IMG/VR virus record: IMGVR_UViG_2737471850_000002
Source of the DNA: a virus
Taxonomy: Duplodnaviria; Heunggongvirae; Uroviricota; Caudoviricetes
Direction: 5' to 3' (one strand)
DNA: 11,760 bases
Shown: piece after piece, positions 3,646 to 7,218 of the stretch
How the letters are laid out: the number at the start of each line of letters is the position of its first letter
Numbering within the stretch: the stretch's first letter is position 1
Notes under the pieces: generated by a model
Databases searched by the model: none
Seen by the model: only the letters and a program-made list of their open reading frames with translations
What the model was told of the DNA's origin: nothing
Program-made: the position numbers and the translations under genes

Positions 3646-3716
3646 CGCTCTGACCGTTACAAAAAGAGAAAGCGCCCCGTTGCCGGAGCGCCTTTGTGAA
3701 CGAATACCGCGCCTTA

Positions 3717-3866
3717 ATGACTGGTGGGGTACGCTACGACCTGAAAGGCCAGCCGTGCGGCGAGGTGACACCACAGGAACAACAGGACGCAGAAACGCGG
3801 CTGGTGGCGCTGAATGAGAAGCGCAAACGCCAGCGCCGGGTAGCAAAGGAGAAAACAGGCGCATGA
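3717..3866 (+). CDS. Possible small basic protein, 49 aa (MTGGVRYDLKGQPCGEVTPQEQQDAETRLVALNEKRKRQRRVAKEKTGA), whose stop overlaps the perC-like start (ATGA)
   Basis: Hand translation; falls below the 60-aa ORF-track cutoff; ATGA overlap with the downstream ATG 3863 suggests coupling, but no clear SD (a GTG at 3696 is an alternative start). A second short frame from 3638 to 3817 is also open in this GC-rich stretch. Confidence 0.25.
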   Translation: MTGGVRYDLKGQPCGEVTPQEQQDAETRLVALNEKRKRQRRVAKEKTGA

Positions 3867-4284: not shown

Positions 4285-5427
4285 ATGAATAAAACTTTAA
4301 TTGCAACATTAGTCGGTATAGTAATGTTAACCGGATGTGGGCCAGAAGAGTTAACTCCAGAACAGAAACAGGAAGTAGCTGCTCTTAAAGCTGAACTGTC
4401 GCAAACGGAAGGTGAAATATCAGCAGCTAAGGAAGTTGACCAGCAGTTTTCTGGTGGGTTGATAAAAAATCTGACAACAGCAAGACTGGAAATATTAGGA
4501 ACTAATAAAGCGCTTTTGGAACAGCGTATTAATGCTATTGAATCAGGTGCCAAAATTGATGTTGTTGTATCTGGAGTAAAACCTGATCCTGAGCTTGCGG
4601 CTTCAATTAAAACTGAAATTGACAGCTTAGATGCAAAAATCAACGAAGCCAAAGCTGATGCTCGTCAGTATAGTGGTGGTCTGATAAAGGTACTAAAATT
4701 ATCTACTGTTGCCACTGAAGAGCAGACCATGGCAATGTTGCAGCAAAAGTACCTCACAGCCAAGTATGGCCTCGCTGAAGTTAAGCTGGCATCAGTACAA
4801 GATAATGACGCAAAAAACAGTACTGAAACGGAAGTAACAGCCAAAAATTCCCAAGAGCAACTTCCTTTACTCCCGCCAGCGGATGGTCCGTTTGGCTTAG
4901 AAGCCGGTCTTACACAGAAAAACATCGAAGATATGATCGGTGCTAAGCTCAAGCCACTACCAGACAGTGTGAATCTGTATACTTCTGATAAATTACCGAA
5001 GCAAAACGCAGATTTTGAAATGTATGGTTTGTTGATCTCCCCGAAAGCTGGTTTATGTCAAATACGGGCTTTAGGAAAAAATATTGATACTGATAGCTAT
5101 GGATTGGCTCTTAAATCCAAGTTTGAAGAATTGAGTAATTCTTTAAGTTCTCTGTATGGAAAGGCTGATACTACAGACTTTTTGCTGGCTGGTTCAATTT
5201 GGAAAGATCCTCAGGACTGGATGAGGGGGCTAAACAAAAAAGAACGCTTCTTATCTGCCACATGGAAGGGAACAAAAGAAATACCATTAAAAAACAATAT
5301 TGATACTATATATATTGAGGCCAGAGCGAACAATTCCACTCAGGGATATGTCTATTTGCAGTACTCATTTACAAATGACGAAATTTGTCAGGCAGAAATT
5401 GAAGGGGCGAAAAAAAGTTCCCTTTAA
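4285..5427 (+). CDS. Lipoprotein, 380 aa, with two internal repeats of about 45 aa (Q-F/Y-SGGLIK...) and a C-terminal globular region
   Basis: Signal peptide with lipobox LTGC (MNKTLIATLVGIVMLTGC); internal repeats QQFSGGLIKNLTT... and RQYSGGLIKVLKL...; AT-rich codon use unlike the upstream genes. Confidence 0.75.
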   Translation: MNKTLIATLVGIVMLTGCGPEELTPEQKQEVAALKAELSQTEGEISAAKEVDQQFSGGLIKNLTTARLEILGTNKALLEQRINAIESGAKIDVVVSGVKPDPELAASIKTEIDSLDAKINEAKADARQYSGGLIKVLKLSTVATEEQTMAMLQQKYLTAKYGLAEVKLASVQDNDAKNSTETEVTAKNSQEQLPLLPPADGPFGLEAGLTQKNIEDMIGAKLKPLPDSVNLYTSDKLPKQNADFEMYGLLISPKAGLCQIRALGKNIDTDSYGLALKSKFEELSNSLSSLYGKADTTDFLLAGSIWKDPQDWMRGLNKKERFLSATWKGTKEIPLKNNIDTIYIEARANNSTQGYVYLQYSFTNDEICQAEIEGAKKSSL

Positions 5428-5491: not shown

Positions 5492-5815
5492 ATGAAAGAT
5501 AATCTAGAAAAACTAATTGAAAATACTTTAAAAGATATTCTATTAGCTAATGCTGCTCTAACATTCATTTTTGCAATACCAATGGCTATTATCAGTAGGT
5601 ATGGGATGGGCATCACAATCTGGTTTATAACTGTGCTCATTGCACCTGCTCTGTGTGCAGTAGGTGCATGGCTTGTATCTCGAACATCCGGCCATGCTGA
5701 GGAGTTCTTTCATCGTCGGTGGGCTAAGCGAATTTATGTTTTTTATACTCTTGCGGCTGCCGAGTTTTTGCTTGTGTACTCAATCGCGCAAATAATGAAA
5801 AATCTGATGAAATAA
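5492..5815 (+). CDS. Small integral membrane protein, 107 aa, about 3 predicted transmembrane helices
   Basis: ORF track 5492..5815; G-rich SD (GGGGGGA) about 6 nt upstream; three hydrophobic segments of about 20 residues. Confidence 0.6.
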   Translation: MKDNLEKLIENTLKDILLANAALTFIFAIPMAIISRYGMGITIWFITVLIAPALCAVGAWLVSRTSGHAEEFFHRRWAKRIYVFYTLAAAEFLLVYSIAQIMKNLMK

Positions 5816-6022
5816 TTAACAAGTTATTATCATGGAGCTTGTGGCTGTTAACCTGCAGTGAGGCGACAATCGTGTATTTATAAAAACTTCCCCTTTTCAC
5901 TCCCCGCTGTTTCTTCTGCTATTGCCTTTATGTTTGCATGCACCAACATCTGCCATACCTTTGCAGAAAAATCAGAGCATTCAGTGCCGAAGGTTGGTTT
6001 ATTGATGCTTTTCGTTTCATTT

Positions 6023-6078
6023 ATTGCAATTGTCTCTGGTATCATTTCAATTTGTGCAATAATTGCAATAATTGCAAT
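6023..6078. promoter_or_regulatory. Three perfect copies of the 8-bp palindrome ATTGCAAT (6023-6030, 6062-6069, 6071-6078) just upstream of the 6103 gene; candidate operator array
   Basis: Seen directly; the last two copies are tandem with 9-bp periodicity (GCAATAATT GCAATAATT GCAATTATT); located 25-80 nt upstream of the ATG at 6103. Confidence 0.4.
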
Positions 6079-6102
6079 TATTGTCATTCAGAAGGGATCA
6101 TC

Positions 6103-6270
6103 ATGAAAAATCACGGAGTAAAGCCAGTTTTACTTTCCCGGAGGCAGATCGAAGCCCTGCAACGCATCCAGGACGAAGAGCGTCAGAAATCTGTGCTTGG
6201 TGTGGCACCGTCGATTCATGTTATCGCTCGGCAACTGATGGATAAGGCACTTAAAGAGGTGAGACTGTGA
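6103..6270 (+). CDS. Hypothetical small protein, 55 aa (MKNHGVKPVLLSRRQIEALQRIQDEERQKSVLGVAPSIHVIARQLMDKALKEVRL), a possible small DNA-binding regulator
   Basis: ATG 6103 with AAGGGA SD 6 nt upstream; stop overlaps the GTG start of the next ORF (GTGA); the upstream part of ORF-track frame 5938..6270 is low-complexity translation of the repeat region. Confidence 0.5.
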   Translation: MKNHGVKPVLLSRRQIEALQRIQDEERQKSVLGVAPSIHVIARQLMDKALKEVRL

Positions 6271-6527
6271 AATTAAATATCAGAGTGGATAAACGCCAGC
6301 TATGGCAGAAAAAAGAGAACAGCGAGGCATTCAGGGCGTTGCTGGTGGAAAATCTTCAGCACCGGTTCAGTGGAGAGTTGCCTGATGCTCTAGGGAAGAA
6401 ACTGGAATCCCTGACGGTGGAAATTGGCGATTATGGCTTTGTTGATGTTGAAAGCACGACTGCCAACACAGAAATCGTAAAACAGGTCGTCAATGATGTA
6501 ATGAAAACCACGCTTAACGGACGATGA
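6267..6527 (+). CDS. Hypothetical protein, 86 aa
   Basis: ORF track 6267..6527; GTG start overlapping the upstream stop; AAAGAGG SD about 7 nt upstream. Confidence 0.5.
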   Translation: MKLNIRVDKRQLWQKKENSEAFRALLVENLQHRFSGELPDALGKKLESLTVEIGDYGFVDVESTTANTEIVKQVVNDVMKTTLNGR

Positions 6528-6540
6528 CATACGGCAGCGT

Positions 6541-6789
6541 GTGCTGAATGCAGCCGGGGAATTAGGCTGGGAAGTGCACTTTCTTGATGATGGTGCTATC
6601 TGCCTTGAGGATGATGAAGGACAGCATTACTTTGAACAATACAATTTGCGGGGTAATGCCTGGCTGGCAATTCATATGCTGCGTTGTGAACTATGCTATG
6701 TTGCCAGCGATTGTCCCGATGAACAGGACACATGGAGTGAGGCAGGACTAAACGCCCTGGCTGAATGGGAAAAATCAGGCCATCAATGA
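6541..6789 (+). CDS. Hypothetical acidic protein, 82 aa
   Basis: ORF track 6541..6789 (GTG start, weak SD); the frame opens only at 6505, so the start is constrained; possible third gene of the small operon. Confidence 0.4.
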   Translation: MLNAAGELGWEVHFLDDGAICLEDDEGQHYFEQYNLRGNAWLAIHMLRCELCYVASDCPDEQDTWSEAGLNALAEWEKSGHQ

Positions 6790-6794
6790 CCTCA

Positions 6795-7008
6795 AAAAGT
6801 GTCAAGTTGAGCAGCTTGCCAGGTTGACACTTTACACTCTGAACGCGAAAAAGTGTCAACCTTGCTGGAAGCCGCGCCATTACTGGCCTTGTACCATATT
6901 CACCACGTCAAAAAACCGAAAAAATCGCGAAAAGTGTCAAGTTGCCATGCTTAGAAATGCCAGGGATGGTTAAGTTTTGTTAAGGTTTTTCGCGAAAAAG
7001 TGTCAACC
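6795..7008. repeat. Iteron-like array: four direct copies of (CGCG)AAAAAGTGTCAA(C/G) at about 6795-6810, 6844-6861, 6926-6942 and 6991-7008, plus one inverted copy GTTGACACTTT at 6823-6833
   Basis: Seen directly; copies are spaced about 50-80 bp apart in an intergenic region. Consistent with a replication-origin iteron set, a partition site, or a multi-site operator. Confidence 0.7.
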
Positions 7009-7038
7009 AGCCCCCTAAGATTTCCTAAGGTGTAAACC

Positions 7039-7218
7039 ATGACCATCACCGAAGCCGATATGCTGGAGATGATCCGCAGCATTGCCGAAATCAAACAACC
7101 AGCAAGCAAAATTAACAGGTGTTCAGCGCCTGTTTCCGTTGTGCTGCAACAGGAACGCCACCAGCAGGATGATGTGAGGCCGTATCAGTGGAAGAAACCG
7201 GACAGGCCGCGACGGTGA
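7039..7218 (+). CDS. Possible small protein, 59 aa (MTITEADMLEMIRSIAEIKQ...), immediately downstream of the iteron array
   Basis: Hand translation; AAGG about 9 nt upstream of ATG 7039; below the ORF-track cutoff; overlapped by a minus-strand ORF (7123..7440) of equally uncertain status. Confidence 0.25.
   Translation: MTITEADMLEMIRSIAEIKQPASKINRCSAPVSVVLQQERHQQDDVRPYQWKKPDRPRR

Follow-up and report, generated by a model that had tools for sequence, protein, structure and literature searches.

Genes and Repeats at the Locus

The 11.76-kb stretch of DNA analyzed here (IMG/VR virus record IMGVR_UViG_2737471850_000002; hereafter the window) is a decayed Escherichia coli chromosomal island of the phage-inducible chromosomal island (PICI) type, a phage satellite. 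We examined a short cassette within it that consists of a gene for a 55-amino-acid (aa) protein (gene 1) and the repeats directly upstream. The cassette is intact in the window though the island has decayed: the replication module is lost, gene 2 is clipped, and gene 3 is beheaded. Gene 1 (positions 6103 to 6270, plus strand) starts with ATG, 5 nt downstream of a Shine-Dalgarno-like AAGGGA (6092 to 6097, plus strand) read from the sequence, and encodes a basic protein with an isoelectric point of 10.5. Its TGA stop codon (6268 to 6270) overlaps the GTG start codon of gene 2 (6267 to 6269) as GTGA, and RefSeq annotates genes 1 and 2 likewise in relatives. An earlier description of this DNA (the sequence-only reading) had noted a 55-aa basic protein just downstream of palindromes with its stop overlapping a GTG, and the coordinates, isoelectric point, and GTGA overlap agree with it. 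The cassette probably combines a conserved promoter with a ribbon-helix-helix (RHH) regulator that binds DNA and controls its own synthesis.

Predicted Fold and Distribution of the Gene 1 Protein

The AlphaFold2 monomer model of the gene 1 protein, with a predicted local distance difference test (pLDDT) score of 84, has residues 1 to 12 extended and helices at residues 13 to 29 and 38 to 54. It models as beta-alpha-alpha, the strand and two helices within about 45 residues that characterize RHH proteins, and its best structural matches were all RHH proteins. Structure prediction in search of an RHH or helix-turn-helix (HTH) fold was a check proposed in the sequence-only reading, and the model bears out the first of these folds. 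We regard gene 1 as encoding a small predicted RHH protein that would bind DNA.

Searches of Pfam, NCBIfam, PHROGs, and PADLOC gave no match to gene 1, and 31 family members searched singly, as well as the family profile, also had no match in Pfam or NCBIfam. PDB sequence searches with gene 1 and two gene 1 profiles gave matches at chance level only. Homologues fell into 29 clusters in a word-indexed search, and an exhaustive profile search found 55 representatives among 1.84 billion; they were confined to Enterobacterales, and none carried a Pfam domain. The identical protein occurs on at least 1,000 contigs. When genes 1 and 3 were compared by tblastn with 50,697 phage genomes, neither had a match, indicating that both are island specific.

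Palindromes and Conserved Direct Repeats

Exactly three copies of the palindrome ATTGCAAT were found in the window, at 6023 to 6030, 6062 to 6069, and 6071 to 6078, the starts of the last two being 9 bp apart, just as the sequence-only reading had it. Palindromes 2 and 3 lie in two tandem 9-bp units, AATTGCAAT (6061 to 6069 and 6070 to 6078, plus strand), one of which is a duplication missing in most relatives. Three copies of ATTGCAAT were reached in 10 of 200 shuffles of the whole window. Local simulations using the composition of positions 5950 to 6102 (35% G+C) gave a P value of ~2e-4 for three copies of one 8-bp palindrome and ~0.014 for two copies.

Among 5,426 complete E. coli genomes, 112 carried the 111-bp stretch with the palindromes, the median number of sites being one and the maximum two; the stretch is not a dispersed element of the widespread repetitive kind that the sequence-only reading had considered. 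The two-palindrome form (102 bp, one 9-bp unit fewer) was found in all but one of the 102- to 111-bp matches listed. F9792, O104:H4, and nearly all matches listed read TTTGTGCAAT-AATTGCAAT-TATTG, i.e., one unit fewer, and the identity bands fitting the longer, three-palindrome allele comprised just 4 to 6 of the 112 genomes. In the island variant of ABU 83972, a perfect ATTGCAAT is missing, yet the gene 1 protein is 98% identical. The presence of three palindromes is thus allele specific. Comparison of the alleles indicates that the third copy is a recent 9-bp slippage duplication.

The sequences upstream of gene 1 relatives were compared at 14 loci from other genomes (Escherichia ruysiae, Rouxiella, Chimaeribacter, Rosenbergiella, Erwinia, Lonsdalea, Pantoea, Rahnella, and two metagenome bins) and at 7 more distant metagenome-assembly loci. 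The feature conserved across genera was a pair of 16-bp direct repeats, TTTCA-N5-TGCAAT (broader form TTTCA-N5-(T/C)(G/T)GCA(A)T), whose starts lie 30 bp apart. By motif scans and the cross-genus alignment, the window copies are R1, TTTCATTTATTGCAAT (6015 to 6030, plus strand), which includes palindrome 1, and R2, TTTCAATTTGTGCAAT (6045 to 6060, plus strand). Both are exact matches to TTTCANNNNNTGCAAT, which with up to one mismatch occurs in the window at R1, at R2, and at two matches within the adjoining tandem units but nowhere else. In composition-matched simulations, the best local direct repeat had a P value of ~0.02. In E. coli, Chimaeribacter, Erwinia, Lonsdalea, Pantoea, and the distant metagenomic member L021, R1 precedes R2 by 30 bp and the second TTTCA box is about 49 nt upstream of the ATG. 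The left half of the octamer differs between genera; loci outside one E. coli island lineage retain only the TGCAAT half and, 10 bp upstream of it, a TTTCA box. The sequence-only reading had taken the palindrome as the element that matters; it is the direct repeats, and not the palindrome, that are conserved across genera. In E. coli, the conserved TGCAAT core takes the local form of the ATTGCAAT palindromes.

Promoter Architecture Upstream of Gene 1

The aligned loci share a fixed order of a terminator-like hairpin, the two 16-bp boxes, a -10 hexamer abutting the second box, and a Shine-Dalgarno sequence. At the non-E. coli loci, R2 is directly joined to TATAAT (TGCAAT-TATAAT), and a conserved -35 element is missing. 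The corresponding TGCAAT(A/T)AT of the E. coli alleles can be read as TGn followed by a -10 hexamer. In the window, this extended -10-like element, TGCAATAAT (6055 to 6063, plus strand), is formed by the TGCAAT of R2 and the next AAT; the 9-bp duplication copies it, and each 9-bp unit recreates TGCAAT(A/T)AT (6064 to 6072 and 6073 to 6081). A looser promoter scan upstream of gene 1 returned extended -10-like candidates only. The terminator-like hairpin was seen between perC and gene 1 in ABU 83972, Pantoea, and Chimaeribacter. Because it separates perC from gene 1, gene 1 is likely to have its own transcription unit.

Many of the non-E. coli loci have a third conserved element, CTG-N9/10-CAG, situated between the -10 element and the Shine-Dalgarno sequence. 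Only Lonsdalea and Pantoea sp. 1.19 (L010 and L011) have a perfect LexA-type box, CTGT-N8-ACAG, just downstream of the -10 element (CTGTATAAAATAACAG, about 24 nt upstream of the ATG). Six loci (L006, L008, L013, L014, L015, and L021) carry CTG-N9-CAG, which is one base too short for a LexA box, and the L022 variant, CTGTGTATGTTTATCAG, is two bases too long for one. This CTGTAT...CAG element could be a decaying SOS box or the true operator of the RHH protein. The E. coli alleles, that of the window among them, have neither CTG-N9/10-CAG nor a LexA box ahead of gene 1. We considered LexA control of the window cassette and rejected it on the grounds that gene 1 has no LexA box upstream.

A Constant Cassette with Variable Cargo

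In other genera, gene 1 is found downstream of perC or a primase gene, heading a different cargo. Gene 1 and its upstream architecture are constant, and the downstream genes change wholly between genera. In Escherichia, the cargo is the orphan gene 2 together with gene 3. Elsewhere it comprises a tape measure protein with a chaperone-sized protein, a Dit-like protein, a baseplate hub, P22 gp7 to gp16 ejection proteins, an HK97 gp10-like tail completion protein, or a small terminase (TerS). The modules headed by gene 1 span positions 6498 to 9908 of L006, 6495 to 8249 of L010, 6165 to 9123 of L013, 6511 to 9087 of L014, 3226 to 5960 of L020, 713 to 2879 of L021, 2680 to 5183 of L022, and 3009 to 5168 of L023. 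Because a constant promoter and RHH head are combined with variable cargo, we consider gene 1 to be a regulator of its own unit, and this is the main argument for that view. Satellites that carry their own DNA-conduit or tape measure proteins seem to be little described.

A bolder proposal is that R1/R2 and the RHH gene form a portable switch of enterobacterial PICI-like satellites, which would drive helper-matched virion modules and, in the E. coli lineage, a new packaging-specificity pair made up of a 175-aa winged-HTH (wHTH) protein and an array of AAAGTGTCAA repeats. We consider this unlikely. If true, the modules would be a tape measure and chaperone for siphovirus helpers, gp7/gp20/gp16 for P22-like helpers, a baseplate hub for myovirus helpers, or TerS. 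The wHTH/AAAGTGTCAA pair would act like Rpp/cosB or TerS/pac while being unrelated to either, and the RHH protein would set the timing with which satellites hijack their helpers.

Proposed Autoregulation and Alternative Explanations

The reading that we favor, and to which we give an even chance, is that this region heads and regulates the distal (post-perC) transcription unit of a Gram-negative PICI, with an RHH protein as the first cistron and negative autoregulation. The promoter region would consist of R1 and R2, three helical turns apart, with R2 overlapping the extended -10-like element. Dimers of the 55-aa protein would bind the TGCAAT-containing boxes. As R2 and the 9-bp units overlap the -10 region, bound protein would repress the promoter, resulting in negative autoregulation of the cassette and of whatever cargo follows. 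R1, three helical turns upstream, would add cooperativity. In this model, dimerization of the 55-aa protein, its binding to DNA, the choice of box as operator, and the sign of regulation are all inferred.

Several observations weigh against this autoregulatory model. The gene 1 protein has no sequence match to any Pfam RHH family (RHH_1, CopG, or Arc) or to a PDB chain. In the monomer model, the strand is unassigned, as expected for a strand that would pair only in the dimer, and residues 1 to 10 have a pLDDT of 63. The predicted ribbon, V6 K7 P8 V9 L10 L11 (VKPVLLS), is unusually hydrophobic for a base-reading strand. Among 24 loci, the repeat motif showed no visible covariation with the RHH strand; in L021, for example, the strand is ITVALC and the TTTCA...CAAT boxes are kept. 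Boxes that stay constant despite a change of strand would be explained as well by common descent of the promoter as by a cognate operator. A simple sigma-70 consensus scan found no plus-strand promoter upstream of gene 1, and its one minus-strand match lay inside the repeats. The repeats overlap promoter-like sequence, and their conservation may reflect RNA polymerase or another factor. Finally, CTG-N9/10-CAG is an equally good operator candidate, and it is an element that the window does not have.

Since TGCAAT(A/T)AT also resembles an extended -10 element, the repeats may belong to the promoter itself or be bound by some other factor. We think it possible, but rather improbable, that the repeats and palindromes are promoter DNA or sites of another regulator (a helper late activator, PerC, AlpA, or a host factor) that switches on the distal module at helper induction, with the RHH protein acting elsewhere, on helper or island DNA or as an adaptor. 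Promoters with a perfect TATAAT and no conserved -35, as at the non-E. coli loci, are typical of activator-dependent or extended -10 promoters. When TATAAT is taken as the -10 element, R1 falls near -50, as reckoned from the alignment, which is a classical activator position. The lack of covariation between the repeat motif and the RHH strand also fits a different regulator. As for its identity, most loci examined have perC upstream of gene 1, in several of them as the immediate neighbor, and PICI genes are induced through AlpA when the helper is induced (PMC6092414, PMC11773190). However, there is no R-like box upstream of alpA, though AlpA autoactivates its own promoter, and PerC has no known DNA motif. 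Protein bound at R2, between the -35 and -10 positions, would usually act as a repressor. In addition, autoregulation is classical for RHH proteins encoded by a first cistron.

The remaining explanations concern the palindromes and the neighboring frames. In a variant of the autoregulatory model that we think quite unlikely, and that corresponds to the proposal of the sequence-only reading, the ATTGCAAT octamer itself is the recognition unit, bound by one RHH dimer per palindrome and cooperatively on the 9-bp units in the manner of MetJ. A perfect 8-bp palindrome would suit the twofold ribbon of an RHH dimer, the tandem units are 9 bp apart, and three local copies are very unlikely by chance, as the simulations above show. 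ATTGCAAT is also present in R2 of Lonsdalea and Pantoea sp. 1.19, and a yak isolate, one of the longer-allele genomes, has R2 homogenized so that there are three perfect tandem units. However, the left half varies, R2 of other genera being TTTGCAAT, AATGCAAT, TCTGCAAT, or ATTACAAT and R1 being ATCGGCAT; the tandem copy number is 1 in most genomes, and ABU 83972 has no perfect copy despite its near-identical protein. A type II toxin-antitoxin role for genes 1 and 2, in which an RHH antitoxin and autorepressor with a 90-aa toxin would stabilize the island, is very unlikely: gene 2 matches no toxin or defense family (Pfam, NCBIfam, and PADLOC), and the gene 1 protein is all RHH fold, ending with helix B and having no C-terminal toxin-binding tail. 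The partner gene is also not conserved, gene 1 mostly preceding tail chaperone-like, tape measure, or baseplate hub genes. The palindromic stretch could alternatively be coding, a suggestion that we find still more improbable. A 33-aa, very hydrophobic open reading frame (ORF), MLFVSFIAIVSGIISICAIIAIIAIIVIQKGSS (6005 to 6106, plus strand), ends in a TGA that overlaps the ATG of gene 1 as ATGA, resembling translational coupling, and a 69-aa ORF lies on the minus strand (5878 to 6087), whose 66-aa equivalent in relatives is annotated as hypothetical by RefSeq. Both frames are open in window-type islands, and the 9-bp indel is in frame, adding IIA or AII. However, neither ORF is kept beyond this lineage. 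In ABU 83972 they lack a start codon or are in a different frame, all other genera have stop codons in every frame, and the E. coli variant L018 has an Asp in the middle of the hydrophobic stretch. Neither ORF has a family match, and the exact 69-aa sequence was not found in a 15-billion-protein collection.

A 376-bp Deletion Shaped Genes 2 and 3

The 5800 to 7100 stretch of the window was present in 167 of 5,426 complete E. coli genomes. Alignment with the closest relative, F9792 (L001), placed a deletion junction at 6515/6516, where the window lacks 376 bp present in relatives (L001 positions 9709 to 10084). With a junction probe, all 30 matches listed spanned the junction in two pieces over about 517 bp, and the deletion was in none of them. 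Intact relatives have the 55-aa gene, a 90-aa gene overlapping it by 4 nt, and then, after about 100 bp with a GC-rich hairpin, a separate 175-aa gene; the window differs from them by the deletion. Lost with it are the end of gene 2, the intergenic region with its hairpin, and roughly 84 codons from the start of gene 3. The sequence-only reading had described a three-gene operon of 55-, 86-, and 82-aa products. The stop-start overlap of its first two genes holds, but its third ORF is the remnant of a separate 175-aa gene. Both the 86-aa and the 82-aa ORF are products of the deletion, and the unit is not a three-gene operon.

Gene 2 of the window is a truncated allele (6267 to 6527, plus strand; 86 aa instead of 90) with a GTG start overlapping the gene 1 stop, in which the last seven residues, SQPSWRN, have been replaced by NGR through the deletion. 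The 86-aa allele (WP_040084720.1) is on 2 contigs, compared with 948 contigs for the 90-aa forms listed. A GC-rich hairpin, GGGGCGGTTATTGCCCC (-14 kcal/mol, with a weak U tract), lies directly downstream of intact gene 2 (L001 positions 9735 to 9760); in intact islands, this hairpin may mark the end of the unit formed by genes 1 and 2, and the window has lost it to the deletion. A homology search, which the sequence-only reading had called for, showed gene 2 to be an orphan with 9 clusters. It had no Pfam, NCBIfam, or PADLOC family and only a weak match (E value of 0.019) to a PHROG of uncharacterized function. The sole distant relative found was at locus L025, downstream of a gene 1 relative and next to a tail completion gene.

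The 82-aa product is the C-terminal remnant of a 175-aa wHTH protein. The gene 3 remnant (6517 to 6789, plus strand) encodes the C-terminal alpha/beta domain, and the listed 82-aa ORF, starting with GTG at 6541, corresponds to residues 94 to 175; it has neither the DNA-binding domain nor an evident ribosome-binding site. In Pfam, NCBIfam, PHROGs, and PADLOC, gene 3 gave only a generic HTH_17/excisionase/TerS-N match, and sequence comparison with the PDB gave chance-level matches only. Against a viral fold library, the HTH alone was matched, with no E value below 0.001, and the C-terminal alpha/beta domain had no structural match.

Five copies of the iteron-like 10-bp motif AAAGTGTCAA lie downstream of gene 3 within positions 6796 to 7006, four on the plus strand (6796, 6850, 6931, and 6997) and one on the minus strand (6824). 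The 10-mer is also repeated directly downstream of a 56%-identical gene 3 homologue in Rouxiella (L003 positions 8880 to 9039), and the array is larger in ABU 83972 (L016 positions 12722 to 12993). Gene 3 and the AAAGTGTCAA repeats are kept together across islands with different replication proteins (RepA-type helicase, primase, and DUF927). This constancy despite differing replication proteins suggests that the repeats are the target of gene 3 and not a replication origin. Judging from their co-occurrence, the repeats are probably binding sites of the intact gene 3 product, orphaned in the window, and the array may serve this protein in packaging or regulation.

Comparison with Known Regulators and Satellites

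In its 55-aa size, predicted beta-alpha-alpha fold, and best structural matches, the gene 1 protein resembles autoregulated RHH repressors (Arc and Mnt of P22, CopG, omega, MetJ, TraM/TraY, and RHH antitoxins). Its position as the first cistron and the repeated short sites overlapping the -10 region are similar as well, and the tandem or direct-repeat arrangement of sites recalls the heptads of omega and the 8-bp boxes of MetJ. In contrast to these repressors, gene 1 has no detectable sequence relationship with them and has a hydrophobic ribbon (KPVLLS), and its putative sites are 16-bp direct repeats 30 bp apart rather than adjacent half-sites. The cassette is unannotated but of a familiar type, in which a small RHH regulator has repeats at the promoter of its own gene, and the mobile element is likewise of a known kind.

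EcCICFT073 and EcCIMP1 are reportedly the PICIs of Fillol-Salom 2018/2019 and Pick 2025. Intact relatives of the window resemble these E. coli PICIs in carrying int, alpA, antA, an icd-like gene, a primase/helicase gene, proQ, perC, and small and accessory genes on one strand (PMC6092414, PMC11773190). The cassette is in the post-ori region, where EcCICFT073 has rppA. Unlike these PICIs, the window copy has no replication module. A lambda-type cosN was not found, as GGGCGGCGACCT does not occur in the window within one mismatch, and the PICI papers searched describe neither an RHH gene nor a TTTCA-N5-TGCAAT promoter.

Gene 3 differs from the Rpp (redirecting phage packaging) proteins RppA and RppC. 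It has no sequence similarity to the RppC PDB chains, and only the generic wHTH aligns structurally. Its C-terminal domain is alpha/beta with no Rpp-like match, and its DNA-binding domain is deleted in the window. The DNA beside gene 3 consists of five AAAGTGTCAA repeats, with no cosQ-cosN-cosB. Membership of gene 3 in the Rpp family was therefore rejected, given the lack of a sequence match, the different C-terminal domain, and the absence of a lambda cosN.

Operon I of the staphylococcal islands (SaPI operon I) is a LexA-controlled packaging operon. The unit headed by gene 1 resembles it as a separately controlled distal satellite operon with helper-exploiting genes, and Lonsdalea and Pantoea sp. 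1.19 also have the CTGT-N8-ACAG box. However, most loci have CTG-N9-CAG, and the E. coli islands, the window included, have no box.

If the autoregulatory reading is true, it would identify both the regulator and the operator/promoter that govern the distal module in common satellites of E. coli and other enterobacteria. We found no description in the literature of distal-module control in Gram-negative PICIs beyond AlpA. The cassette, 110 bp plus a 55-aa protein, would then be a compact handle on the timing of the helper-exploiting genes of these satellites. The copy in the window is of little biological weight, being a relic without the replication module and the DNA-binding half of gene 3. 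The more interesting leads are the family-wide link of the cassette to helper-matched virion modules and the gene 3/AAAGTGTCAA pair.

Decay of the Island and Neighboring Genes

On its plus strand, the window carries alpA (PF05930, E value of 1.9e-19) at 2528 to 2767 and, after it, antA, a proQ remnant, perC, and the cassette. The ABU 83972 island, between yicC and dinD, has int, alpA, antA, icd-like, primase, proQ, perC, and genes 1, 2, and 3 in this order, which agrees with the published layout of E. coli PICIs (PMC6092414, PMC6739421, PMC11773190). The integrase gene, present in ABU 83972, is outside the window. In the window, antA is joined at 3705 straight to a 56-aa C-terminal ProQ/FinO fragment (3696 to 3866), and at the same point ABU 83972 has 5.4 kb (L016 positions 5667 to 11102) with icd-like, DUF4222, primase/helicase, and SSB genes. 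The window has no primase/replicase (pri-rep) gene or origin of its own, which are present in intact relatives. Because the replication module is missing, the window copy is not a functional PICI. No complete genome matched the arrangement of the window over 80% of its length, and Rfam and tRNA scans of the window gave no matches.

Between perC and gene 1, the window carries genes for a 380-aa lipoprotein (4285 to 5427) and a 107-aa membrane protein (5492 to 5815), neither with a family match. Both are missing in ABU 83972, where perC lies 110 bp from gene 1, and a lipoprotein gene is found at the perC-gene 1 position in other genera as well. A 59-aa protein (7039 to 7218) has a conserved C-terminal P-Y-Q-W-K-K-x-x-R-P-(P)-R motif (phrog_7271 and phrog_1561), and its homologues close the module in Rosenbergiella and Rahnella too. 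At the position of accessory genes, a 297-aa DUF4747 protein (7551 to 8444) is followed by a 199-aa multipass membrane protein (8444 to 9043), with overlapping stop and start codons. This pair had no PADLOC match; it looks like cargo, possibly for defense. Farther downstream, a glycoside hydrolase family 15 gene (9413 to 11065) is split into two same-frame ORFs by an in-frame TGA at 10247 to 10249, and the F9792 gene is intact, encoding 536 aa.

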